54,993 bases of DNA from NCBI GenBank assembly GCA_964438715.1, contig CAYTLQ010000324.1:1-54993 (forward strand). Direction: 5' to 3'. Below, piece by piece: positions 3,613 to 54,993 of this stretch (position 1 is the stretch's first letter; the number at the start of each line of letters is the position of its first letter). The notes beneath the pieces were generated by a model, which was given only the letters and a program-made list of their open reading frames with translations, had not been told where the DNA came from and did no database searches. The translations under genes and the position numbers were made by a program. Source of the stretch: an uncultured Ignavibacteriaceae bacterium. Lineage in GTDB: Bacteria > Bacteroidota > Ignavibacteria > Ignavibacteriales > Ignavibacteriaceae.

Positions 3613-4342
3613 AAATCGAAGATCCTCTGGATTGCAAATCCTCTGGATTTTAAATCCGTTCCATAACGGATCGGAGATCCTCTGGATAATATTATCACAG
3701 CACAAACAAAAGAAACCCTGACGGAGTGGAATTATAATTTCTCTTCACTCCGTCAGGGGATCCGTTGGCTAATCCGTTAGCTAACGGACAATGCCACTAT
3801 TATATCACCCTTTCAGGGTTTTATTTGGGTATTTAACGAATATTCTATAATACTTTCAACCCCTCGGGTTTAATGACACAGAAACATTTGTTCGTTCTAA
3901 AAAAATCAATCCTGAGATAAGACAAATTATATAGCAGGTGTATGCCAAATATCAAATAACAATCCTGAAGGGATGTTTTATTTATAGCGCAGATATACGC
4001 AACACCAAATAAAAATCCGAAGGGATGACATAATTAAATAATTGACTTGCTATCATAGTTCAATTTCGTCATAAGATCCGTTGGCTAATCCGTTAGCTAA
4101 CGGACGATGCCACAATTATATCACCCTTTCAGGGTTTTCAGGATAAGTAAGGATAGCTGTTGTTATAAAAATATCACCCTTTCAGGGTTGGGTGTATGAT
4201 AAAACTTTAAATCCTCTGGATTTTAAATCCGTTCCATAACGGATCGAAGATCCTCCAGATTGTTAAATCCGTTCCCTAACGGATGGACTTAGCTTTTGTA
4301 ATCTATCCGGAGGATTTACAATTCTCAAAATGTCGTACACCC
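3613..4342. repeat. Copy A of a modular hairpin-rich intergenic repeat family
   Basis: Long near-identical stretches are shared with 30466-31192 and 53059-53412. Shared modules include GGATCCGTTGGCTAATCCGTTAGCTAACGGACAATGCCACTATTATATCACCCTTTCAGGGTT and GGGTGTATGATAAAA...AATCCTCTGGATT. A perfect 13-bp stem lies at 3716-3728/3747-3759. The right end carries an inverted copy of the terminal motif GGGTGTACGACA (4331-4342). Confidence 0.85.
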
Positions 4343-30465: not shown

Positions 30466-31192
30466 GGGTGTACGACAAAATGGTCGAAATTTAACAGATA
30501 TAATCGCAAATCGAAGATCCTCTGGATTGAAAATCCTCTGGGTCGAAGATCCTCCGGATTGTTAATTCCGTTCCCTAACGGATGGGACATCCTCTGGATT
30601 ACAAATCCTCCGAATTGTTAAATCCTCTGGATAATATTATCACAACACAAACAAAATAAACATCTACGAGGGGGACTAATATTTTCTCTTCACTCCGTAA
30701 GGGGATCCGTTGGCTAATCCGTTAGCTAACGGACTAACGGACAATGCCACTATTATGTCACCCTTTCAGGGTTTTCAGGATAAAAAGGATAGCTGTTGTT
30801 ACAAAAATATCACCCTTTCAGGGTTGGGTGTATGATAAAATTTTTAAATCCTCTGGATTGTTAAATCCGTTACCTAACGGATCGAAGATCCTCTGGATCG
30901 AACATCCTCCGGATTGTTAAATCCTCCGGATAATATTATCACAACACAAACAAAATAAACACCGACGAGGTGGAATAATATTTTCTCTTCACTCCGTCAG
31001 GGGATCCGTTGGCTAATCCGTTAGCTAACGGACTAACGGACAATGCCACTATTGTGTCACCCTTTCAGGGTTTTCAGGATAAAAAGGATAGCTGTTGTTA
31101 CAAAAGTATCACCCTTTCAGGCTTGGGTGTATGATAAAATTTTTAAATCCTATGGATTGCAAATCCTCCGGATCGAAGATCCTCTAGAATGA
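30466..31192. repeat. Copy B of the modular repeat family; contains two tandem ~300-360-bp units
   Basis: The unit-start motif GGGTGTA(C/T)GA(C/T)AAAA occurs at 30466, 30826 and 31125. The stretch 30588-30902 is nearly identical to 30903-31190 (offset 315 bp). It shares modules with copies A and C. Confidence 0.9.
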
Positions 31193-32261: not shown

Positions 32262-33653
32262 TTAAGAACAGGCGATTTCTATTTTCTTTTTAATCGCGTG
32301 AACCGTTTCTTTGAAATTATTATCAGTCTCTATCATATTCTGCACAGAAGTACATGCATGTATTACTGTTGAATGGTCACGACCGCCAAAGTAAAGCCCA
32401 ATATTTTTTAATGAAGTTGTCGTCATTTCCTTTGACAGATACATAGCAACCTGACGCGGAATTACAACTTCCTGTTTTCTTGTTTTATCACGCACTTTGT
32501 TTTCATCAATACGAAAATGCTCGCATGTAATTCGGGTAATACTATCCACAGAAATAACGATTTTTCTTGTTGTGGAAATATCGCGAACTGTATGTTTTAC
32601 AAGATCAAGGTCAACTGGCTTATTTGCTAACGACATATTTGCAAGCAGTCGGAGCAGACAGCCTTCTAATTCACGGATGTTTGAGGTAATATGTGTAGCA
32701 ATATATTCAAGCGCTTCCTGAGAAAGGGAGAGACCGAACTCATCCGTTTTCTTATTTAATATTGCAAGTCGTGTTTCATATTCCGGTGGTTCAATTTCAA
32801 CACTAAGCCCCCAATGAAATCTGGAAATAAGTCTTTCGGTAATACCTTTAATATCTTTTGGCGGCTTATCGCTGGTTAATACGATCTGTTTACCTTTTTG
32901 ATGTAGTGAGTTAAAAATATTAAAGAAAAGATCCTGCGTTTGTGTTTTTCCGGAAAGAAACTGGATATCGTCAAGTATGATGGTATCCATACTGAGATAA
33001 AAATTCTGAAACTCGTTAATTTTGTTGGAAAGAACATGCTCAACAAATTTAACAGTAAATTGATCGGTTGAAATATAAATAACCCTGTGGTCAGGGAAGT
33101 TTTCAAGAATTTTATTTCCAATAGCCTGAGCAAGGTGAGTTTTACCTAACCCAACTCCCCCATATACATACAAAGGGTTGAAGGCTGTTTTTCCGGGAGC
33201 ATCACCAATGGCAAATGCCGCAGCCGAAGCAAGCTGATTACCACCACCTTTAACAAAATTCTGAAAGGTATATTTTTTATTTAAATTTGACTCAAAAGGT
33301 GGAGCTTCGTTTACCGGCGATTTTGAAATCAGAGGTATTTGAATAAGAGGAGGTGGCGGTTCTTTTTCTTCGTATTTTTCGTTTATGACATATTCCAATG
33401 AACCATCCTGACCAATAACCTGCTCAATACAATCTTTCATCAGTCCCGAATAGCGCTGAGCTATCCAATCGTAATGAAAACTCCCCGGTAATTCAATCCG
33501 AAGCTTATTGTTCTCCAATGAAAGGGGATTTATTGGTTCAAACCATGTGCTGAATGTCATTGGGGTAACATTTTTTTTAATTATTTCGAGGCATTTACCC
33601 CAAACCATCACAAAATTCATATCATTTGTATAATTCTCTGCTTCAATCTTCAT
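32262..33653 (-). CDS. dnaA: Chromosomal replication initiator protein DnaA
   Basis: Walker A GGVGLGKTHL, Walker B ILDDIQFL, sensor motifs LTSDKPP and RLISRFHWGL, and the C-terminal DNA-binding domain (PRQVAMYLSKEMT..SLKNIGLYFGGRDHSTVIHA). Confidence 0.95.
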   Translation of the reverse strand: MKIEAENYTNDMNFVMVWGKCLEIIKKNVTPMTFSTWFEPINPLSLENNKLRIELPGSFHYDWIAQRYSGLMKDCIEQVIGQDGSLEYVINEKYEEKEPPPPLIQIPLISKSPVNEAPPFESNLNKKYTFQNFVKGGGNQLASAAAFAIGDAPGKTAFNPLYVYGGVGLGKTHLAQAIGNKILENFPDHRVIYISTDQFTVKFVEHVLSNKINEFQNFYLSMDTIILDDIQFLSGKTQTQDLFFNIFNSLHQKGKQIVLTSDKPPKDIKGITERLISRFHWGLSVEIEPPEYETRLAILNKKTDEFGLSLSQEALEYIATHITSNIRELEGCLLRLLANMSLANKPVDLDLVKHTVRDISTTRKIVISVDSITRITCEHFRIDENKVRDKTRKQEVVIPRQVAMYLSKEMTTTSLKNIGLYFGGRDHSTVIHACTSVQNMIETDNNFKETVHAIKKKIEIACS

Positions 33654-38730: not shown

Positions 38731-39705
38731 CTACTCTATGCTGATACGATTTATTCGCTGATGTAACAACTCTTTATATTCGGCTTTCTTTATCGGGGAA
38801 AGAAAACTTTTTTCTATACATTCAATCAGAAATTTTTCTTTCTCAAGAAACTTCTTGTGAATATTGCGAACACTTTTACTATTAATTTCAAGGGATTCTG
38901 CAAAAGCCGCAAAATCACTTTTCTTTAGGTTGCTCTTTTTTCCATTTAACGGCAAAGCCAATTCTTCATTATCCTGAGGAATTAACAGTTTGGTTGAAAG
39001 CAGATCGTACGCCGGGGCTAATATCACTTCATTCTCATTCGTAGTCAATAATGAGAAATTCTTTAAATGCATATCTGCATTACCGGTAATGAATGAGAAT
39101 AATGTCAATTCATAAAAATTTATGAGATCAAACAGAGGATAGCTTGAGTATTGTTTGACTACCTTACCGATTTTTTCCATTGATCCGCGATATTTATTTT
39201 CAGTTAATGTTCCGGTCAGTTGTGCCATATCTTCACAAGCTAACTTTCCTGTCCCTATCCTGTCAAATCGTTTTGTGATATAAGAAATTTCACCCGACTT
39301 TAATCGTATAAGCGAGTGTTCAGCAGTTTTTATTTTTACTATTCGGGCAAGATGCATCGTCAGGTCTTCAATTTCAGGCATCTCGGGATATTCCTCCACA
39401 GGCGGTTTTAGTATAAAATTACCAAGCACCCCAATAATCGATAGTCTTTTTTTCTTTGTTTGAGCATATTGACTCTCAATTGATATTTTCGGCTGAACTC
39501 CGGTTACTGATACACTTTTTTCCAAACTAAGAATGGCAAATCTCTGAATTTCTTCTAAAGTTAAAGGGATTTTCGGGGGACTTTCTTTTCCGAAAAATTT
39601 TTTACTGCATTTGGGATGAAAATCTACTATTTCCCCCTCCAAAGGATTATAGCAGTATAGGCATTTGTTTTCATTGTTATTCATTGTTTTTTTCTTCGGA
39701 GTCAC
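38731..39705 (-). CDS. HipT-like Ser/Thr kinase toxin (HipA C-terminal kinase core) with N-terminal zinc ribbon
   Basis: Kinase catalytic motif GNADMHLKNFSL and LAPAYDLLST. N-terminal CLYCYNPL...HPKCSKKFFG. The track start is a GTG at 39705; an ATG at 39684 is an alternative giving an 8-nt overlap. Confidence 0.8.
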   Translation of the reverse strand: MTPKKKTMNNNENKCLYCYNPLEGEIVDFHPKCSKKFFGKESPPKIPLTLEEIQRFAILSLEKSVSVTGVQPKISIESQYAQTKKKRLSIIGVLGNFILKPPVEEYPEMPEIEDLTMHLARIVKIKTAEHSLIRLKSGEISYITKRFDRIGTGKLACEDMAQLTGTLTENKYRGSMEKIGKVVKQYSSYPLFDLINFYELTLFSFITGNADMHLKNFSLLTTNENEVILAPAYDLLSTKLLIPQDNEELALPLNGKKSNLKKSDFAAFAESLEINSKSVRNIHKKFLEKEKFLIECIEKSFLSPIKKAEYKELLHQRINRISIE

Positions 39706-40024
39706 TTAGTACACTTATGGCACCAATACAATCTTTACAAAACATTAACAATAACCCCATCCTGTCTTTTGGATCAATCTTCCAATTCTTCCTGGCAATC
39801 TCTAATAGCCATCCTTCCGGAATTATACCATCAAACACAGGAAGCATGGTTTTCGACTCATACGGTTCTTTTCGCAAAGGCATTGTCAGACTAATTGGTT
39901 GATTTTCAGTACTTGCTAAATAATCTTCATCATACTGAAATCTGAAACCTTCTTCAGTTTCTGAAACTATTCCGGCCAACAAATTCTTAAAATATACTTT
40001 ACCTTTACGAGCCATTTCATTCAC
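39677..40024 (-). CDS. HipS-like protein (stand-alone HipA N-terminal subdomain)
   Basis: 115 aa matching the HipA N-terminal pattern: VYFKNLLAGIV...FRFQYDEDYL...PISLTMPL...LPVFDGIIPEGW...DCIGAISV. It overlaps both neighbours. Confidence 0.75.
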   Translation of the reverse strand: MNEMARKGKVYFKNLLAGIVSETEEGFRFQYDEDYLASTENQPISLTMPLRKEPYESKTMLPVFDGIIPEGWLLEIARKNWKIDPKDRMGLLLMFCKDCIGAISVLSDSEEKNNE

Positions 40025-40229
40025 TTCTTTCTATTTTACCCGGTTTAAGCTCGTATCCAAACAATGCCAATACCTGATTAACTTTATCCATTCTCATAGA
40101 CTTTTTTCCTTGTTCAATTTCTCGTAATAACCTCAGTCCTATGCCTGCTTTTTCAGCGAGTTCAATTTGCGTGAGGTTAAGTCTTTTCCTTTTTTGCTTT
40201 ACAAACTGAGCTAATTCGTTTTTCACCAT
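40017..40229 (-). CDS. HipB-like XRE-family helix-turn-helix protein
   Basis: 70 aa with the HTH LTQIELAEKAGIGLRLLREIEQGK. It is the first gene of the three-gene locus. Confidence 0.8.
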   Translation of the reverse strand: MVKNELAQFVKQKRKRLNLTQIELAEKAGIGLRLLREIEQGKKSMRMDKVNQVLALFGYELKPGKIERSE

Positions 40230-46268: not shown

Positions 46269-47186
46269 TTAATAATAATTCAATCGAGCAAAAAATCGAT
46301 CAATGAGTTTTTCGTTCAGCGATGGCAGATCGGTTTTCAGTATTTTATAGTTGTATTTCGGAACCTGCATTTCATCAAACCATTTGCTCCAGTATGCTTT
46401 CATAATATCATAATCGTCGGTGTATGGTCCCCAGGGAGCAAATTCGAGCGCAAGAATGTGGAGTTGTTTCAGCGTAACACCTGCCGAAAGAAAACCATAG
46501 TCACCATTAGTAAAATCCGATTGCCAGTTAGGATTTTTCCGAAATTTTGAAACATGGGGTGCATTAGGTCCAATAAAACTGTAACGATTTCCTTTCTGAT
46601 ATATACTGTTAGCAAAATACATATAGCCATCGGTAACAACTACCAGAACATTGATAGTGTTGGGTTCATCGGAAATACAGTCATCTGTGGCACGATGCCG
46701 GAAATAATTGAAAATGTCTGAACCATTAAAATAACCGGCGGATGAAGCAATATTGTACAATTGTGTCAAATTATTTCGGTAAATACTATCCAAAGCGGAG
46801 TGCATTTTTCTTTTTTCATCAATCTCCAATTCAGCAAAATCGATGTCAAGCGCTTTTGCAATAGACTGGATTGTGGAATTAAAATGGTTTGGATAAAAAA
46901 CAACCTTAATACAGTCGTTTGCGGCAAATACACCTTTTTTATCCATCCCTTTTTTCATTGCGTGTACAACTCGCAGAATGGCCGCTATATCTTTTTCGGC
47001 CTGATCGGGATTTTTTATGGCAGAAATTCTGTCCGAGAGGTCAAGTAGTATGGTAATGTTATAGTTAGTATGTAGAACCGTTTCAGAATTTCCTCCGGAA
47101 TCTTTTTTCCCATTTTTACATCCGGTCAGAATTGTTATTGCAATAAAAAAGAAAGAAAAAAATTGTATCGCACTTTTCATAAGCAC
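46269..47186 (-). CDS. Hypothetical lipoprotein with a Rossmann/vWA-like strand pattern
   Basis: Lipobox LTGC. The pattern ITILLDLSDRIS ... IKVVFY ... NVLVVVTDGYMY resembles vWA beta1/beta2/beta4, but the MIDAS DxSxS motif is not intact (DLSDR). Confidence 0.6.
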   Translation of the reverse strand: MLMKSAIQFFSFFFIAITILTGCKNGKKDSGGNSETVLHTNYNITILLDLSDRISAIKNPDQAEKDIAAILRVVHAMKKGMDKKGVFAANDCIKVVFYPNHFNSTIQSIAKALDIDFAELEIDEKRKMHSALDSIYRNNLTQLYNIASSAGYFNGSDIFNYFRHRATDDCISDEPNTINVLVVVTDGYMYFANSIYQKGNRYSFIGPNAPHVSKFRKNPNWQSDFTNGDYGFLSAGVTLKQLHILALEFAPWGPYTDDYDIMKAYWSKWFDEMQVPKYNYKILKTDLPSLNEKLIDRFFARLNYY

Positions 47187-47288
47187 TTTAATCCTTTGTT
47201 TTATTATCTAATCCTCGTAAAATTATTTCTGCCGCAGTCATAAACACTGCTTCCATTATCGTACCCGGGAATCCATTAATTGCTCTCA

Positions 47289-48509
47289 TCATAACTTTAT
47301 GCCTTTTTCTATGTAGAATTTCTCAATAGTATTTTGTATGGAAATTATATCCTCATCATTATATTGACCATTTTCGAGATATTGTATCCAGCCAATTCCA
47401 TATTTTGAGATAACATTTTTAAGTTTATTGGGGCTAAAGTACACTTTGTCCTGTGGATTCTGTAATGCTGCAGCTTGAAGCCGAAGGTCATTTATCAATC
47501 CATCAAGTCTTTCTATTTCATTCAGCAAAGCAGTTTCGGAAGCTTTCAGTGATGCTAAGTGTCCCTCCTTCTCGGCAATCATTCTCTCGTATTTATGACG
47601 AATGTTGCGTTCATTAAAAAACAAGTTCAGTACAAAACCAAAAATCAAATAGACAAAAAATCCAAAAGCAATTACAAACCAGAAGTTGGGATCGACTAAA
47701 GCATCAAAAACTGTAAATACTTTCTTTTCCTGGAAGGAATTCAGGCGTTCTATATCGCTCATTTTCTTTGATATATGAAAAGCCAGAAGAGAATCAATCA
47801 CGAAAGTAAAGATTATTAATCCATAATATTTAATTTTCTCTTTTCCTTTATAATCCCGATATGTGTGAATAAGAAATCCAAGAGCCAGAAAAATCCAAGG
47901 ACCAACAAGAACAAATAACAAAGTTTCTAAGCTTATTTCTAATGCTGTTCCGTAAACATTCGGAAAAAATATAGAATTAAATCTTGTGATTGACTCTGGT
48001 CGTATTTCTCTGAAGAAAGCAGAATAAATAACAGAACTGTAAAAAATATGCAAGAAAAGTGCCAGAAATATGACTACAAATAAATATATCCAATATTTTA
48101 ACGGATCTTTTTCTTTCTCAATATACTGATCAGGGTTTTGCTTTAATTTACGGAGTTCCTCCTCCACTTCATGCTGTCTCGCCCGGTTTTCTTCAAGTTT
48201 TCCTGTTTTTATCAACTCTATCGCTTTTTGATGGACGCTAATTTCAGCCTCTATTTTCTTCAGGGCAGTTTCAGCCTCGTGTTTCTTGGCATTATTTAAT
48301 TCCTCGTTTTTCTCGGCTTGTATCATTAAGTTGGTAAAGAATTTCTGAAGACTGATGTAAAAGGCTTCTATCTTACCACCAACACTTGCGGCATCGCGAA
48401 ATCCCTGTTTTTGGTAATTATGTTTATAGATCATACTGTTTGTGTGCCCGTTATTTGAAATAAATTGATTCTCATTATTTTCGCTTTTGTTGATATTCTC
48501 GTCAAACAT
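47289..48509 (-). CDS. Hypothetical membrane protein: four TM helices flanked by coiled-coil segments
   Basis: N-terminal heptad-like charged region (AKKHEAETALKKIEAEISVHQKAIELIK...EEELRKLK). Four hydrophobic helices follow (YWIYLFVVIFLALFL, LLFVLVGPWIFLALGFLI, YYGLIIFTFVIDSLLAF, FWFVIAFGFFVYLIFGFVLNLFF), then a second coiled coil (LASLKASETALLNEIERLDGLINDLRLQAAAL). Confidence 0.7.
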   Translation of the reverse strand: MFDENINKSENNENQFISNNGHTNSMIYKHNYQKQGFRDAASVGGKIEAFYISLQKFFTNLMIQAEKNEELNNAKKHEAETALKKIEAEISVHQKAIELIKTGKLEENRARQHEVEEELRKLKQNPDQYIEKEKDPLKYWIYLFVVIFLALFLHIFYSSVIYSAFFREIRPESITRFNSIFFPNVYGTALEISLETLLFVLVGPWIFLALGFLIHTYRDYKGKEKIKYYGLIIFTFVIDSLLAFHISKKMSDIERLNSFQEKKVFTVFDALVDPNFWFVIAFGFFVYLIFGFVLNLFFNERNIRHKYERMIAEKEGHLASLKASETALLNEIERLDGLINDLRLQAAALQNPQDKVYFSPNKLKNVISKYGIGWIQYLENGQYNDEDIISIQNTIEKFYIEKGIKL

Positions 48510-48651
48510 AGTGTAAATCTTTCTTCCTTAATTAATGTTATTGAAATTAGTAACGAATACTAATAATTATATTTTTCGTCTGCTGATCCTTTAAATACAA
48601 AAGTTCTATACTTTTTGTCTTCTGACCGGGTTGGTCATTGTATTATCCCTT

Positions 48652-48909
48652 TCATACTTTTATATCACTATTGGCTTCGCTCAAAGCTTCAGCTTTAATT
48701 CTCTCCCCATCGTAACGGACTTTGTTAAAGTCCCAATCGTGGAGGCTGAATGAGGTTTCCCACCGCCAGAATCCAACCTTAATGATACAATGTCCTCCTG
48801 CCTTTGTAGCAAGTGTTATATTGATTGAAAGTACATCGAATAGTGCGAGTCGGTATTCTTTACTGTTTATCTCTTGTGATGCACGGCTGCTAATCATTAT
48901 TACATTCAT
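48652..48909 (-). CDS. Hypothetical small protein (85 aa)
   Basis: The ORF has a purine-rich stretch (AGAGAGAG) upstream of the ATG. No recognisable motif; it could be non-coding. Confidence 0.4.
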   Translation of the reverse strand: MNVIMISSRASQEINSKEYRLALFDVLSINITLATKAGGHCIIKVGFWRWETSFSLHDWDFNKVRYDGERIKAEALSEANSDIKV

Positions 48910-49473: not shown

Positions 49474-50598
49474 TTACTTCAGAGTAGTTTTTGGCAAAAA
49501 ATATTCAAAAGACTCCCCAAGAGACCTGTTTGCTCCTCCCTGCGCTACTACAAAAACAAAGGCACGAGAGATGTTTTCATTCTTATCATCAGCATTGTAG
49601 CGACGAACAGCCATAAAATTACTTATATATTGTTCTTTTGCCAGAGAACCAAGCCTGGCATATAAGTATGCGGGACGCAAACCGTCCACAATCACGCCTT
49701 GTTTCGACGCCAATAAATCAAAAGCTCTTTGAAGATACTCACTCATTATTCTTTTGCTTTCGTCGTTCGTAAGATCTTCGGGGTGGCGAAAAAGGGCATA
49801 CGCGTGTTTCTTACCATCCCGTGCGGGTATATTCTTTAGTAATTCGACTGAAATTCGTCTTTTTCCCGGATTGTTCTTTCGCTTTAAGAAATCAATTATT
49901 TTTTTTCCGAATAATCTATCAAAAAAATTTGTGAGCGTTTTTACGGGAATAACTCTTTTCTGACCAAGATTGGTGCCTTCAGGAACAAAAAACTCCCACA
50001 GCTTCAGTCTTTCCGCCTTTATTATTTCCAATTTACTTTCAAGTGCGTCAACTTGAAAAATATTGGTATCGCCATCCCTAATTACGCCGGTAAATACCTT
50101 ATTAAAAGAGATTTTCTGACCGATAAGATAAGACATCGCAGCAGCCGCAACGGCAAGTAAATAGGATTTCCCATCCATCTTCTCAAGAAGAGGATTATTA
50201 TCAGGTAACCTAAAATTTACTGTAAGATTTTCTATGCCCCAGTCCAACACCATTATTTCGGGTTTAATATCTTTAAGTATATTATCAAGGTATTGTGCGG
50301 CTTGCTTCAAAATAAACCGGATATCAGAATCAACAGTACCTGGTGTGTTGGATTCCGTAACCACAACCTTACATAAAGAAGAAACATTCCTTTCCTTATG
50401 ATACACAGGGAAAAACGCTTCACCTGTTTGTAAATTTTGCTGTAGGGAGTAAAGAGTATGTACTCTTTCCAGTTCAGCCTCGAAATGTACTTTGTCTTCG
50501 AGATTATCTTTACTCTTTCGTATTAATTGTGAGTATATTTTTTTCGCCGTACGAAAATTGCAATGTTTTGTATGGAAAACCGCTAATTGCTCATCCAT
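49474..50598 (-). CDS. Lon (S16)-like Ser-Lys protease domain fused to a short C-terminal alpha/beta domain (CalpL-like architecture)
   Basis: Track ORF numbering. The segment MDGKS(164)YLLAVAAAAMSYLIGQKISFNKVFTG...VDALESK(208)LEIIKAERL...FFVPEGTN aligns to the E. coli Lon segment [32 protein letters not shown]...GGLKEKLLAAHR...VLIPFEN. The Ser-to-TG spacing is identical (26) and the Ser-to-Lys spacing is 44 versus 43. The likely start is the ATG at 50598 (M20 of the track ORF), giving a 16-nt overlap with the upstream gene; the ATG at 50655 would give 73 nt. Confidence 0.7.
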   Translation of the reverse strand: MDEQLAVFHTKHCNFRTAKKIYSQLIRKSKDNLEDKVHFEAELERVHTLYSLQQNLQTGEAFFPVYHKERNVSSLCKVVVTESNTPGTVDSDIRFILKQAAQYLDNILKDIKPEIMVLDWGIENLTVNFRLPDNNPLLEKMDGKSYLLAVAAAAMSYLIGQKISFNKVFTGVIRDGDTNIFQVDALESKLEIIKAERLKLWEFFVPEGTNLGQKRVIPVKTLTNFFDRLFGKKIIDFLKRKNNPGKRRISVELLKNIPARDGKKHAYALFRHPEDLTNDESKRIMSEYLQRAFDLLASKQGVIVDGLRPAYLYARLGSLAKEQYISNFMAVRRYNADDKNENISRAFVFVVAQGGANRSLGESFEYFLPKTTLK

Positions 50599-51476
50599 TC
50601 CAACATTACCTCGTGTTCTCTTTTTATACCATCGACATTGTACGAAATTTTCCATAAACCGTGTTTAAGAAGCTCTCTGTTAAATCTGGTAAAAGCTCGT
50701 TTTTCCTTTCCGGGGGAAATTTCCTGCTCAGTTGAATAAACCTCAGTTTCTTCATTTTTTAATAAAATATTATCGATCGTTTTTACTTTATCGCTTATAA
50801 TAACAAAATACATAAACCCATCTATGACCGATAACCTAATGATGATATGAGGTTGGTTAATCAGAGTAATTGAATTTTTTCTCTGCTCTCGTTCTTTTGT
50901 CCAGAACATAGCGGATTCAGTTTTAACCTTATTATCAGATGCTGCGATTTTTACCGGCTGATATTCTACCCCATTTGTATTTCGTGGGAGAAGGAGAATT
51001 AACGGAGATCTTAAAGATTCCTCATCAAGTGAATATTTCTCCTGATCTTCAAGAAGCGCAACCGCGCGGAAACGAAGCGGTTCAAGCAGAGAATTAATAA
51101 TACCAATATCCTGCAATTGTTCGGGATAATAGCCAAAATCCGTATTCTTCTCAGATTCTATCACTTTCTTTGTAACTGAATCAGAAAGGGTACCTAAAAA
51201 GTACTTTAATGAAGAAACCGGAAGGGGTCCCGCTGTTGCCCGGATTGCGACCCTTTTTGCCGCAAATATTCCTTTTGAAGCAGTTTTTGTAATAAGTACA
51301 TCACGATCATCGGTAATTGAGGTATAAAGCGAAACTACCATAGTCCTCACTGCGCCAAGTGAAGCAAATGTGGCATCGGTAATAATGACATCAATATCGT
51401 GTTCAAACAACCTCCAAACCTGCCCTTTACGATATTGAGTTGGGGTGTGCGTTAAATTATATAAAATATTATTCAT
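50583..51476 (-). CDS. Hypothetical 297-aa protein with a MazF/PemK-like N-terminal domain and a beta-rich C-terminal domain (CalpT-like architecture)
   Basis: N-terminal KGQVWRLFEHD...GAVRTMVVSL...DVLITK...VSSLKYFLGTLSDSVTKKVIESE follows the MazF/PemK strand order (GxxW..., R..VV, ...L...iG.ls......i). Its size of about 33 kDa and its position next to the Lon-like gene fit that architecture. Confidence 0.5.
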   Translation of the reverse strand: MNNILYNLTHTPTQYRKGQVWRLFEHDIDVIITDATFASLGAVRTMVVSLYTSITDDRDVLITKTASKGIFAAKRVAIRATAGPLPVSSLKYFLGTLSDSVTKKVIESEKNTDFGYYPEQLQDIGIINSLLEPLRFRAVALLEDQEKYSLDEESLRSPLILLLPRNTNGVEYQPVKIAASDNKVKTESAMFWTKEREQRKNSITLINQPHIIIRLSVIDGFMYFVIISDKVKTIDNILLKNEETEVYSTEQEISPGKEKRAFTRFNRELLKHGLWKISYNVDGIKREHEVMLEWMSN

Positions 51477-52530
51477 GATCGTTCACCGGAAAATGTTCGT
51501 GTATTCTGTATTCATCTGCGAGATACAAATAAAAATATTCGAGTGCATTACTGCTCTCCTCATTTACACCGGTAAGTACTTTCCCGATGAGCTGATTAAC
51601 TTTTTTAGAGTAATTTTCAGCAGAGCTTTTCTTAATATAGCGATGAGTGAGTTTCTCAATTTCCTCGAAGCCCAGGTTATAAACCCAATGTAAATACCAA
51701 GCTGTTGCAAATTTCGGCAATTTTTTACCTGTTTTGTCTAATTTGTTAAATCCATCTACCAATTCATGAAACAGAAATAAAACAGGTTCGGCAAGGGTTT
51801 TGTATTCTGTTTCACGAATTTTTTGAGTTCGGAGCAGATACGCCTCTTTCTCATCGGTGTCGTCAATTTCGTTAAAATCAACAACCGGATTATCAAGAGC
51901 ACCGTTAGCAATTTCTATCATCTCAATAATATCAGAGATGCGTACAGCTCTATTTTCCAAAATTTCGAAAATATTTTTTAAATAATTTTTTAATTTATTT
52001 TTTTTGTAGTCACCGGAAGTATCTCTAAACCTGTAGGAAGGAATTTCTGGCAGGGGAGAGGACTGAGAAAATTTCTTGTAAGCTGAATTGACATATAGAT
52101 AATCTTTGGAGAATTGACTCGGGATAATTTGAATCAGGTTTTCCTGTTGAAGCTCAGTACAAATTGACAATAAATGGCGTTTGAGAATCTTTTTCTCATT
52201 TGTTTGAAATTGACGCTCTAATAAATCTTTCACACTCACAATAATCTTTCTGAAATACCCAAATATTCTCTTTTTCGATTCTTCATCAACATTCACCACT
52301 GTTTCCCAAAAGTCATAATTTTTGTCAAACGATTTGTATAGAATTACGAAAAATTCACTTATAATCTGTTCTTTCAGGTTAGAGGATATTTGGGGAAAAT
52401 CTTTTGTGATATATCGTTTGATTTGATTAAAAAAGTTTTTTATTTCACCAGGCTTCGGTTGATCACCACGCTTGTGAGCAAGGTAGAATACCCTTAGTAA
52501 ACTCGAAATATTTTTGGATAAATCGCTCAT
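51469..52530 (-). CDS. Hypothetical alpha-helical protein; possible divergent sigma-70-family-like factor
   Basis: Predicted to be mostly helical. The segments EQIISEFFVILYKSF...RIFGYFRKIIVSVKDLLERQ (sigma-2-like) and ATAWYLHWVYNLGFEEIEKLTHRYIKKSSAENYSKKVNQLIGKVL (sigma-4 HTH-like) are only suggestive. An ATGA start/stop overlap links it to the upstream gene. Confidence 0.3.
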   Translation of the reverse strand: MSDLSKNISSLLRVFYLAHKRGDQPKPGEIKNFFNQIKRYITKDFPQISSNLKEQIISEFFVILYKSFDKNYDFWETVVNVDEESKKRIFGYFRKIIVSVKDLLERQFQTNEKKILKRHLLSICTELQQENLIQIIPSQFSKDYLYVNSAYKKFSQSSPLPEIPSYRFRDTSGDYKKNKLKNYLKNIFEILENRAVRISDIIEMIEIANGALDNPVVDFNEIDDTDEKEAYLLRTQKIRETEYKTLAEPVLFLFHELVDGFNKLDKTGKKLPKFATAWYLHWVYNLGFEEIEKLTHRYIKKSSAENYSKKVNQLIGKVLTGVNEESSNALEYFYLYLADEYRIHEHFPVNDHE

Positions 52531-52994
52531 AGTGAAGCCAATATTTTATTAAGAATTGCCTGTGCAGAGTCGGAAAGAACAAAAAATCGTTGGTTAAGAT
52601 TTTTCTGGACAGAAAACCACCTGTAGTAAATAAGAAAGTAGGTTGGTACTTTTACCTTTTCCTGAGGCGGCGCCGTCTTAAGACAAGGCGGATAATTTCC
52701 TCCAATAGGATGCGGTGTCGTTGTTCCCGGTGCAACATGTACAAGATCATAAGGTTTAAAGGTACGCGGAGTTTCTAAAACTACACATGGTCGTAAAGAA
52801 GACTTTATGTGAGAACTTTTTCTCTTGCTGTCAAATGGCACTGATTTATCTGCAATTCCCCAAACACTACCAAAATACAAGCCGTTTATTCGTTCCTCTT
52901 CTAAGGGATCGGTTTTTAATTTTCGGCGGGTAATACGAAGAGCTTTTCTTTTAACACCCGTTCTTTGAAGGAGTAGGGCAATCCGTTTTTCCAT
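52527..52994 (-). CDS. PemK/MazF-fold protein with a basic N-terminal extension
   Basis: GLYFGSVWGIAD...SSLRPCVVLETP...VHVAPGTTTPH...PTYFLIYYRWFSVQKNLNQRFFVLSDSAQAILNKIL follows the MazF/PemK pattern (GdiW, RPxVVl, v.PiTt, ...v...l...iG.Ls......i...l). Confidence 0.55.
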   Translation of the reverse strand: MEKRIALLLQRTGVKRKALRITRRKLKTDPLEEERINGLYFGSVWGIADKSVPFDSKRKSSHIKSSLRPCVVLETPRTFKPYDLVHVAPGTTTPHPIGGNYPPCLKTAPPQEKVKVPTYFLIYYRWFSVQKNLNQRFFVLSDSAQAILNKILASL

Positions 52995-53058: not shown

Positions 53059-53412
53059 GGGTGTACGACAAAATGGTCGAAAATTAACTTATCTAATAGC
53101 AAATTGAAAACCCTCTGGATCGAAGATCCTCTGGATAATATTTTTACTACACAAACAAATAAACACCGACAGGGTGGAATTATCATTTTAGTCAGGGGAT
53201 CCGTTGGCTAATCCGTTAGCTAACGGACAATGCCACTATTATATCACCCTTTCAGGGTTCTATTTGGGTATTTAACGAATATTCTATAATAATTTCAACC
53301 TTTCGGGTTTAATGACACAGAAACATTTGTTCGTTCTAAAAAAATCAATCCTGAGATAAGACAAATTATATAACTGGCGTATGCCAAGCATCAAATACCA
53401 ATCCCGATGGTG
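53059..53412. repeat. Copy C of the modular repeat family, truncated by the IS insertion
   Basis: It starts with GGGTGTACGACAAAATGGTCGAAAATTAAC, as copy B does. The stretch 53200-53400 is nearly identical to 3758-3958 of copy A. Similarity to copy A is lost at about 53405-53415. Confidence 0.85.
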
Positions 53413-54993
53413 GCTGTCGCATAAGTATAATAAAAAAAGAAGAGAAAAAGTGATAGCACCCTAATAAATACAGGCGGATAAGCGAATTAAAAGCAGTATA
53501 TTTTGCATACACATTACAAAGATAAAGACAAACCATGCCTGTACTCGCCCGGAGAAAAGCAAAGATACCACTTCCATTTGAGAAACCGGATTTGAATCAA
53601 TTGATCGATGAAAATTCGTTGCCAATGAAGCTTCACAAACTTATAAACCAATTGAATTTCAAGGATTTTTATGAGAATCTATCTGCTACGGGTGCGCCGA
53701 ATTATCCGCCCGAAGATATGATGTCAATCCTGATGTTGGCATTTAGTGAGGGGATATTTAGCACACGAAAGATAGAGGAGCGATGCAAAAGGGATCTGTA
53801 CTATTTATTTATAACGGAACAGAGGAAACCGGATCATTCGACGATAGCGCGATTTATCCAGAAGCATAAAGAAAGTATATCAAAACTTGGAGTACAGATA
53901 GTACAATTGGCTCGGGAAAAAAAGATAGCAAGTTTTGCAACCATAAGCATAGATGGAAGCAAAATAGCTTCATTATCCAGTAAGCGGCACAGCAAAAGAT
54001 CGGGTGGATTAGAGGCGCACAGGAGATATCTGGAAAAACAGATCGCAAAAGTATTAAAAAAAGTAGAAGTGACCGATAAACAAGAAGCCAAAGAAATACA
54101 GAAGTTGGAAAAAGAAGAGAAATGGTTACAGAAACGATTGGAGAAAACAAAGCAAGCACAGGAAGAACTGGCAAGAAGACAAAATGAGATACAACAGAAA
54201 GAACTTCGGGAGAGCCACCAGATAAACATAGAAGAGCCGGAAGCGCGGATGATGCCTATAATAGCCACAAATGGATATAATATTCAGCTCTCGACAGATA
54301 CAGCAACGGGAATAATAGCCGCACAGTCAGTAACGATTGCCCGTTCAGATAATAATGAATTTAAGCCGCAACATAAGAAGACCGAAGAGATATTAGGAGA
54401 AGATAGAAACCGGACATATTTAGGAGATTCCGGTTATAATAGCGAAGAGACCCTGGGATATGTGAAAGAGAATAATATCGATGCATACATCAATGATTCA
54501 AAAGAGAAAGAAAAGCAACCCGGTATCGAGGAGTTGAAAGCACGGGGGAAAAGATTAACGATTTATGATTTTGTATTTGATAAAGAAAAGAACGAATACA
54601 TTTGTCCGAACCGGAAAAGATTACGGGAGACAGAGACGCTGGTATATGAATGCGAACAGTGCGATGGCTGCGAAGTAAAAAATTTATGCTGTAGGACTAA
54701 GGAAAAAAGACGGATAACAAAGACAAGTTATACTATAATGCGTGAGGCTATGAGCGAGCGTGTAAGATCGAACAAAGAAAAGATGAAAGAGCGAAAATCA
54801 GTAGAACGAGTTTTTGGACAGATGAAGTGGAATTTGGGATTTAGAAAATTCCACCGAAAAGGAATAGACGGGGCGACGGTAGAATTGAATATTTTAGCTA
54901 TGGCAATAAATATGTTGAAAATATTCAACATATTATTGTGTTTTTATGAAATACGAGGTAAGAAAAACCGCTTACTGGTAAGACTGAAAGTAA
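53413..54993 (+). mobile_element. IS1182-family (IS5-like) insertion sequence; the left boundary is approximate and the right end lies outside the window
   Basis: The left boundary is inferred only from where homology between repeat copies A and C breaks. The element contains the transposase ORF. No terminal inverted repeat could be verified because the right end is absent. Confidence 0.6.
53535..54993 (+). CDS. IS1182-family DDE transposase; the C-terminal end runs off the window
   Basis: Hand translation from the ATG at 53535 is open to the window end; the terminal TAA is out of frame. The N-terminal transposase domain reads PPEDMMSILMLAFSEGIFSTRKIEERCKRDLYYLFI...PDHSTIARF. DDE-region segments are ISIDGSKI and YLGDSGYNSEE. 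A Cys cluster (CPNRKRL...CEQCDGCEVKNLCC) and the C-terminal VERVFGQMKWNLGFRKFHRKGIDGATVELNILAMAINMLK follow. It is absent from the ORF track because it lacks a stop. Confidence 0.85.
   Translation, partial: MPVLARRKAKIPLPFEKPDLNQLIDENSLPMKLHKLINQLNFKDFYENLSATGAPNYPPEDMMSILMLAFSEGIFSTRKIEERCKRDLYYLFITEQRKPDHSTIARFIQKHKESISKLGVQIVQLAREKKIASFATISIDGSKIASLSSKRHSKRSGGLEAHRRYLEKQIAKVLKKVEVTDKQEAKEIQKLEKEEKWLQKRLEKTKQAQEELARRQNEIQQKELRESHQINIEEPEARMMPIIATNGYNIQLSTDTATGIIAAQSVTIARSDNNEFKPQHKKTEEILGEDRNRTYLGDSGYNSEETLGYVKENNIDAYINDSKEKEKQPGIEELKARGKRLTIYDFVFDKEKNEYICPNRKRLRETETLVYECEQCDGCEVKNLCCRTKEKRRITKTSYTIMREAMSERVRSNKEKMKERKSVERVFGQMKWNLGFRKFHRKGIDGATVELNILAMAINMLKIFNILLCFYEIRGKKNRLLVRLKV

Follow-up and report, generated by a model that had tools for sequence, protein, structure and literature searches.

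CalpL, a Lon protease fused to a SAVED domain that serves type III CRISPR systems as an accessory, has been shown to be switched on by SAVED filaments induced by cyclic tetra-adenylate (cA4), with cleavage occurring in trans (10.1101/2024.05.08.593097). For its substrate, CalpT, the reported cleavage sites are LAA|A (10.1101/2024.05.08.593097) and VA|ST, the latter with a requirement for Ala at P1 (10.1101/2021.12.06.471393). Csx3, also called Crn3, is known as a ring nuclease that either stands alone or is fused to an AAA ATPase (PMC6546367, PMC12409355, PMC12669027 supplement); a pair of dimers encloses the cA4 ligand, and the protein assembles head-to-tail into filaments (PMC7371418). In a 2025 catalogue of type III signaling components, Lon appears only in the SAVED+Lon fusion, and the sole role listed for Csx3 is that of a ring nuclease (PMC12669027 supplement); a full-text search of the literature found neither a Lon-Csx3 fusion nor a CalpL variant family. 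Here we describe a four-gene cassette (genes A, B, C and D) from an uncultured Ignavibacteriaceae bacterium, encoded on contig CAYTLQ010000324.1 of assembly GCA_964438715.1; the complete contig of 54,993 bases is referred to below as the window. The cassette is a rare, unannotated relative of the CalpL/T/S module with a Csx3-like domain in place of SAVED. The family of its protease, D, is absent as such from Pfam, NCBIfam and PADLOC, and the source names that were retrieved, for two orthologues in related locus L013, read 'hypothetical protein'.

In the list of open reading frames (ORFs) of the window, the four genes are found on the minus strand as A (52527..52994; 155 aa), which leads the cassette, B (51469..52530; 353 aa), C (50583..51476; 297 aa, 34 kDa) and D (49474..50598; 374 aa). 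Consecutive genes overlap by 4 nt at the A/B junction (ATGA), by 8 nt at the B/C junction (ATGAATAA) and by 16 nt at the C/D junction (ATGGATGAGCAATTAG). An earlier reading of this DNA from its letters only (the sequence-only reading) had described four coupled minus-strand genes, and all of its coordinates and overlap lengths proved exact. The gene call for D in the public collection uses the start that yields 374 aa; a 393-aa ORF is not the call on record.

D is a Lon-fold Ser-Lys protease and a true CalpL relative in its N-terminal and protease domains. Neither Pfam nor NCBIfam gave a match for the window D protein; the PADLOC CRISPR-Lon (CalpL) model PDLC01050 matched D at E=8.1e-9, with residues 16-219 of the 393-aa form aligned to model positions 18-187 of 458. 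The helical N-domain and the Lon Ser-Lys domain of D thus both fit this hidden Markov model and, as in CalpL, an AAA+ module is missing. The AlphaFold2 model of D is of high confidence (pLDDT, the predicted local distance difference test score, 92; pTM, the predicted template modeling score, 0.89) and comprises three N-terminal helices (residues 2-54) and two alpha/beta domains, one central and one C-terminal, the latter being the small domain that the sequence-only reading had placed on D. Lon similarity was recovered by both structure and profile searches, as that reading had anticipated; the best PDB match found by Foldseek was the Lon proteolytic domain 1XHK (E=5e-9), a D profile searched against PDB sequences also matched 1XHK around the catalytic Ser, and Pfam Lon_C was matched by 8 of 51 family members. 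When all four proteins were searched against PDB sequences, either singly or as profiles of 4 sequences, this match between D and 1XHK was the only useful result.

The Lon-fold domain covers residues ~60-230 of D (49909..50421). In an alignment of 51 sequences only S145, S156 and K189 are invariant; S145 (codon 50164-50166) and K189 (codon 50032-50034), which are 44 residues apart, are the dyad that had been proposed earlier with the numbering S164/K208, and they compare with the S152/K193 dyad of CalpL. An exhaustive HMMER search grouped the D family into 64 representative clusters, most of them 357-395 aa long and most matching end to end; this is a distinct family that is shorter than CalpL (~370 aa vs ~500 aa). 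No hit of ~500 aa was found among the 64 clusters, so that HMMER gives no link between this family and CalpL. The weakest matches (P0052, P0053 and P0062-P0069; 358-426 aa) aligned only to the part of the profile that covers the N-domain and the protease, and may carry other C-terminal sensor domains. One of these, P0053 (locus L027), is still found in a four-gene cassette, in which C is longer (397 aa). Searches for D relatives in phage, plasmid and viral-contig collections gave no match.

The C-terminal ~140 aa of D (residues ~232-374; 49477..49905) are, by profile comparison, a Csx3/Crn3-like domain and not SAVED, and presumably represent a sensor of cyclic oligoadenylates (cOA). When a profile of this region, made from 47 relatives, was compared with PDB, the five best matches were all Csx3/AF1864 (E=0.018-0.05) and the match spanned nearly the whole domain. 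Cas_csx3, which 6 of the 47 members matched (best 4.5e-5), was also the only recurrent Pfam family for this domain, and hhalign aligned the profile with a fragment of AF1864 over 81 columns at 95.5% probability (E=1.4e-8). Within the alignment lies the cA4-contacting loop (S/D)-G-x-x-P, in which G45 of Csx3 corresponds to G306 of D (PMC7371418). By comparison, the CalpL and SAVED models did not align past residue ~220 of D; the suggestion that the sensor falls short of a full SAVED domain (~250 aa in CalpL) was thus borne out. Foldseek with the full D model returned, among the matches listed, only Lon and RadA protease domains and no CalpL, so that the identification of the C-terminal domain comes from profile methods.

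Besides its fusion to a protease, this domain differs from Csx3 in its apparent lack of catalytic His. Ring-nuclease activity of Csx3 depends on the catalytic residues H57, H60, D69 and H80 (PMC7371418). No His is found in window D at the positions aligned to these four residues, with two alignments differing by one residue, and many D relatives carry N-H at the aligned catalytic positions, the residue-level alignment being uncertain. Since Csx3 forms filaments with cA4 and CalpL is activated by filaments that cA4 induces, a Csx3-like domain could provide a CalpL-type mode of activation.

Comparison with related loci, for which the searches included one with a 13-sequence subset of the D family, showed that the cassette is conserved as a unit (~150/355/290/370 aa) in ~14 lineages. 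Wherever a lineage extends far enough upstream, both the order A-B-C-D and the gene sizes are retained, distant members included (i.e., L001/2, L003, L004, L005-10, L011/12, L013, L015, L016, L018/20, L023, L024/25, L026 and L027/28); the short contig of L014 has a 262-aa ORF together with C and D, and the upstream genes are not clear there. The co-occurrence and synteny of the four families for which the sequence-only reading had proposed a search were thus found, together with frequent linkage to type III CRISPR. Cas genes or CRISPR arrays adjoin the cassette in 8 of the ~14 lineages and, where effectors are visible, these are of types III-A, III-B or III-D-like. Type III-A csm genes are found beside the cassette in L001 and type III-B cmr genes in L015, L024/25 and L027; L005 carries cas1-cas2 and a 16-repeat array followed by Card1 and a type III-D-like set, L013 a gene for Cas1 fused to a reverse transcriptase (RT-Cas1) and a 16-repeat array, L014 Card1 and Cas6, and L023 cas1-cas2. 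In two further lineages, one of which is L026, the cassette adjoins only a Card1-type nuclease, and in L016 and L018, represented by short contigs only, no cas genes were seen.

The presence of cas genes or arrays in 8 lineages, and of a Card1-type nuclease in two more, marks the family as an accessory module of type III systems, as CalpL/T/S is. The effectors found beside the relatives are of the Card1/Can2 and Csx1 types, which are activated by cA4; CalpL, too, has been reported to be often accompanied by another cA4 effector, for example Card1 or Csx1, and co-located effectors normally share their activator (PMC11229360). Taking into consideration that several type III subtypes and Card1/Csx1-type effectors are found nearby, the module would be cOA-dependent, with cA4 as its most likely activator.

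Other genes were also found to cluster with the cassette. In L026 (6386-11086) a Card1-type CARF nuclease and ABCD are located amid housekeeping genes (encoding a Tricorn protease, NADH dehydrogenase subunits and arginine decarboxylase), and the 10 kb to each side showed no cas genes; besides the window, this is an independent second copy that lacks cas effector genes nearby. CARF(NE0113)-RelA/SpoT and CARF-sigma54-activator fusions cluster with the cassette in L027 (11181-14622), as does a DarT-NADAR (DarTG) pair in L011/L012 (L011 1001-2199). In addition, a small gene of the MJ1673 family (PF27247) recurs by the cassette or its CRISPR locus (L004 4004-4369; L005 2050-2448; L027 12588-12980).

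The product of C, which is encoded directly upstream of the protease gene in all loci, is probably the substrate of D and would also act as an adaptor, as CalpT may be compared with it in size (~30 kDa), in its place beside the protease and in the Ala at the predicted P1 of a motif that is taken to lie between two domains. The motif, (L/I/V/A)AA(A/S)D, is found in 13 of 14 C orthologues, ~60% along the protein, and is an Ala-rich candidate cleavage site at a CalpT-like position, the P1 Ala of CalpT being located in the linker between its domains some two-thirds along the protein. In the window it reads IAASD (residues 177-181 of 297; 50934..50948, minus strand), and a cut at A179|S180 is predicted to yield fragments of 20.1 and 14.0 kDa. 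The MazF-like N-terminal domain that had been assigned to C was not recovered by any tool. Neither single sequences nor profiles nor orthologues of C matched Pfam or PDB, none of 10 orthologues matched DUF2080 at E<=5, and hhalign of C against B. subtilis MazF gave no signal, a single-sequence template being weak. C therefore differs from CalpT in lacking a detectable MazF or DUF2080 match. Compared with the PemK-like A family, C gave an hhalign E-value of 0.026 at 1.9% probability, which is not significant, with the two families aligned in register.

Among the remaining two genes, A encodes a basic protein (pI 10.2) for which a PemK/MazF-like identity has moderate support from family matches. 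Pfam PemK_toxin was matched by 3 of 8 A orthologues (best 3.5e-4), and a precomputed PemK match, a weak one, exists for the L023 orthologue; window A itself reached only E=0.1 (13.3 bits vs a cutoff of 23.1). The PemK/MazF fold proposed for A by the sequence-only reading thus finds support in orthologues and little in the window protein, and its view that an extra gene of this kind heads the operon agrees with the position of the PemK-like A. Three motifs are conserved in A, GS(V/I)W, RP and APGT(S/T), of which we take the latter two to be the regions of the MazF catalytic Arg and Thr. An hhalign comparison of A with a MazF sequence, again a weak single-sequence template, gave no signal. A is always present in the cassette and has no equivalent in CalpL/T/S. 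No small antitoxin gene is found beside it; downstream it is followed by B (353 aa), and upstream there is only non-coding or insertion sequence (IS) DNA.

B is a helical protein that may represent a divergent sigma-like regulator. In its AlphaFold2 model (pLDDT 71 overall), an N-terminal helical domain (residues ~8-105) and a C-terminal helical domain with a helix-turn-helix (HTH)-like appearance (residues ~250-340) are predicted with pLDDT 80-94 and the middle is poorly predicted. No sigma-70 region was matched by window B in Pfam. The sole match of a B profile in PDB was sigma region 2 of SigR (E=0.2), Sigma70_r4 and r4_2 were matched in 1 of 9 orthologues (E=0.002-0.005), and in an hhalign comparison with RpoE only region 2.1/2.2 aligned (E=0.034). 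Foldseek with this moderately confident model gave no match at E<=0.001 in PDB or BFVD; phage sigma factors were among the best BFVD rows, with sigma factors only at E=0.4-2.8. Since these four weak signals agree, none of them is significant and the PDB search with Foldseek was null, the sigma-likeness of B is to be read as a lead and not as a finding. Of the earlier description of B, its helical nature and a length (353 aa) about twice that of an extracytoplasmic function sigma factor could be confirmed, and the sigma-2/sigma-4-like segments are only hinted at.

Considered as a whole, the cassette is likely to be a CalpL/T/S-like switch that is gated by cA4, with D carrying a Csx3-like sensor, C as its substrate and B and A as outputs. 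In such a switch, Cas10 would sense foreign RNA and produce cA4, which the Csx3-like domains of D would bind, sandwiched between dimers as in Csx3, to form head-to-tail oligomers. Oligomerization could bring the protease site of one D protein to the C protein held by a neighboring D, and C would then be cut at the AA|(A/S)D motif (A179|S180 in the window). Cleavage of C may free or unmask B and/or A and could thereby start a transcriptional and/or RNA-cleaving antiviral response. Of this scheme, the folds and domains of D, the conserved cassette, the CRISPR linkage of its relatives and the motif in C are observed here, and the ligand, the oligomerization, the cleavage site and the parts played by A and B are inferred. 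The window cassette has no adjacent cas genes and would have to respond to a type III system encoded elsewhere in the genome. A fuller proposal, in which the Csx3 fold acts as an activating protease sensor, the output is double (B as a regulator and A as a MazF-type RNase) and the orphan island possibly works in trans, is tentative and somewhat doubtful.

Several observations weigh against this interpretation. As described above, C lacks detectable MazF or DUF2080 similarity and its hhalign match with A is not significant; the end domains of B are modeled confidently, yet Foldseek matched them to no sigma factor at a significant level; the ring-nuclease His residues of Csx3 are apparently not kept in window D, as far as an uncertain residue-level alignment can tell; and no cas10, CRISPR array or cyclase was detected in the 55-kb contig, ~13 ORFs of which were outside the scan. 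The CalpL/T/S analogy that was first drawn from the sequence stands for the protease (PADLOC E=8e-9) and for the linkage to type III CRISPR, and a substrate role of C is probable; the SAVED domain, the sigma factor and the MazF/DUF2080 domain found no significant match. B, at 353 aa and with no significant sigma match, differs from CalpS accordingly.

An alternative reading is that the cassette contains no transcription factor and is a protease-gated toxin switch. A would then be a MazF-type endoribonuclease held silent by B and/or C, and cleavage of C by D would free A to cut cellular RNA, leading to dormancy or abortive infection, with B as a scaffold or an antitoxin-like inhibitor. A is indeed the only partner with recurrent family matches, all of them to PemK_toxin, and it retains RP and PGT(S/T), the presumed positions of the MazF catalytic Arg and Thr, and B has no significant sigma match in structure or sequence. 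CalpT was itself at first taken for a latent MazF-like toxin (10.1101/2021.12.06.471393). However, none of the RNAs tested was cleaved by the MazF-like domain of the characterized Calp system, the output of which is a sigma factor (10.1101/2021.12.06.471393; PMC11229360), and the weak signals in B all point to sigma region 2 and to region 4/HTH. We consider a pure toxin switch rather unlikely; the two readings are not mutually exclusive.

A different set of alternatives arises from the surroundings of the window copy. Pfam scans of the 20 largest or nearest ORFs revealed no cas genes (a distant cyclase is possible among ~13 ORFs of middle size, at distances above 20 kb, that these scans did not reach), tblastn with the cas proteins that accompany the relatives gave no match in the window, and no CRISPR array was found in it by Tandem Repeats Finder (TRF) and repeat searches, Rfam also being null. 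This absence, the L026 cassette that lies amid housekeeping genes with no cas effectors within 10 kb, the short contigs of L016 and L018 without visible cas genes and the purifying selection described below would all suit a genuinely CRISPR-independent defense or toxin-antitoxin module, the sensor of which reads a signal other than the cyclic oligoadenylates of Cas10. Such a module is improbable given that 8 of the ~14 lineages adjoin cas genes or arrays and two more, including L026, a Card1-type nuclease, and that the sensor of D is related to the cA4-binding Csx3; moreover, the contig breaks in an IS on the side where relatives hold arrays, and cOA is diffusible, so that action in trans is possible. 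Because the cassette usually adjoins type III CRISPR-Cas genes in other genomes, the window copy is an orphan and not a CRISPR-independent system. The sequence-only reading of a stand-alone switch thus holds for what was detected on this contig and not for the family, given the type III loci beside its relatives and the IS in which the contig ends. With no cas10, array or cyclase detected on the contig, a source of cOA in this genome is hypothetical.

A further possibility, that IS activity stripped a type III locus of its cas genes and left the cassette as a decaying and non-functional remnant, also draws on the missing cas genes and is more improbable still. The ORF directly upstream, beyond a dispersed repeat, encodes an IS1182-family transposase (53535..54992, plus strand), as identified by its translation and by tblastn against annotated IS1182 transposases (E ~1e-35, 92-95% coverage); it runs off the contig end, and the contig thus breaks inside it 0.5 kb upstream of A. 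On this same side, L005 and L013 carry a CRISPR array with cas1/cas2 or RT-cas1, respectively. Downstream of D, where cas10 is found in several relatives, the window has unrelated genes. In the 98%-identical relative L004 an extra MJ1673-family gene directly follows D, and this gene is missing from the window through a ~690-nt indel that is flanked by the repeat AGTAACxACTTCTTGCxGTTTACTTATTCGGGAATAATAACTT. The upstream transposase and the missing gene would suit a remnant. However, none of the four ORFs is disrupted and their coupling overlaps are kept, the catalytic residues of the protease are retained and the same cassette was seen in several samples. In addition, the ratio of non-synonymous to synonymous changes (pN/pS) between the window and L004 is 0.21 overall (30 synonymous and 23 non-synonymous changes) and ~0.2 in each of the four genes, for which the counts are small; this ratio argues that the genes remain functional.

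Other systems share parts of this proposed logic. In SAVED-CHAT and in Csx29, a tetratricopeptide repeat (TPR)-CHAT protein that acts with Csx30/Csx31/RpoE, an infection signal likewise leads to site-specific cleavage of a partner and to release of a regulator or toxin; however, CHAT is caspase-like and its fold is unrelated to that of Lon S16, and the activator of Csx29 is not a diffusible nucleotide but target RNA on the effector complex. The type II toxin-antitoxin module MazEF/PemIK under control of Lon similarly brings a PemK/MazF-like protein, as A is, and a Lon-family protease into one functional context. In contrast to those modules, the cassette has no small antitoxin gene, the partners of A being 297 and 353 aa long, and its protease is a dedicated one that lacks an ATPase, is fused to a sensor and is encoded in the same operon.

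If the proposed switch is confirmed, D would represent a second, independently assembled cOA-activated Lon protease, with the same protease and N-domain as CalpL, another sensor and other released partners. The role of the Csx3 fold would widen from shutting off the signal to reading it, and the stacking of Csx3-like dimers by cA4 would play the part that SAVED filaments have in CalpL. A compact (~370 aa), nucleotide-gated and site-specific protease with a predicted recognition motif may also interest tool builders.

The repeat just upstream of the cassette (53103..53223) belongs to a dispersed family and bears the motifs ATCCTCTGGATT / ATCCGTTAGCTA, which recur at 3622-4100 and 30513-31184. 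A CRISPR array at this end of the contig had been considered and was rejected, since TRF and repeat searches showed the stretch to be a copy of this genome repeat and Rfam gave no match. The family (ATCCTCTGGATT with the palindromic ATCCGTTAGCTAACGGAT) includes a 299-nt unit present in 2.1 copies ~1 kb from dnaA (32262-33653) and looks REP- or MITE-like (i.e., like a repetitive extragenic palindromic sequence or a miniature inverted-repeat transposable element). The sequence-only reading had placed the operon in an AT-rich island bounded by an IS and a repeat. The upstream IS1182 ORF is real and the repeat is a dispersed one; the island itself was not supported because the G+C content at the cassette (0.36) falls inside the range across the window (0.33-0.46).

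Elsewhere in the window, overlapping minus-strand ORFs at 38731-40229 encode a 70-aa XRE-type HTH protein, a 115-aa HipA N-terminal protein (Couple_hipA) and a 324-aa HipA_C kinase; this split HipA resembles the tripartite HipB-HipS-HipT toxin-antitoxin arrangement. Downstream of D (46269-48909, minus strand) are an 85-aa ORF, for which L021 also has a gene call, and ORFs for a 406-aa coiled-coil protein and a 305-aa protein, neither of which had a Pfam match; by eye the former appears to span the membrane, and the latter has a lipoprotein-like N-terminus. Sorting domains of the type IX secretion system (T9SS) were also found by Pfam among the proteins encoded in the window.

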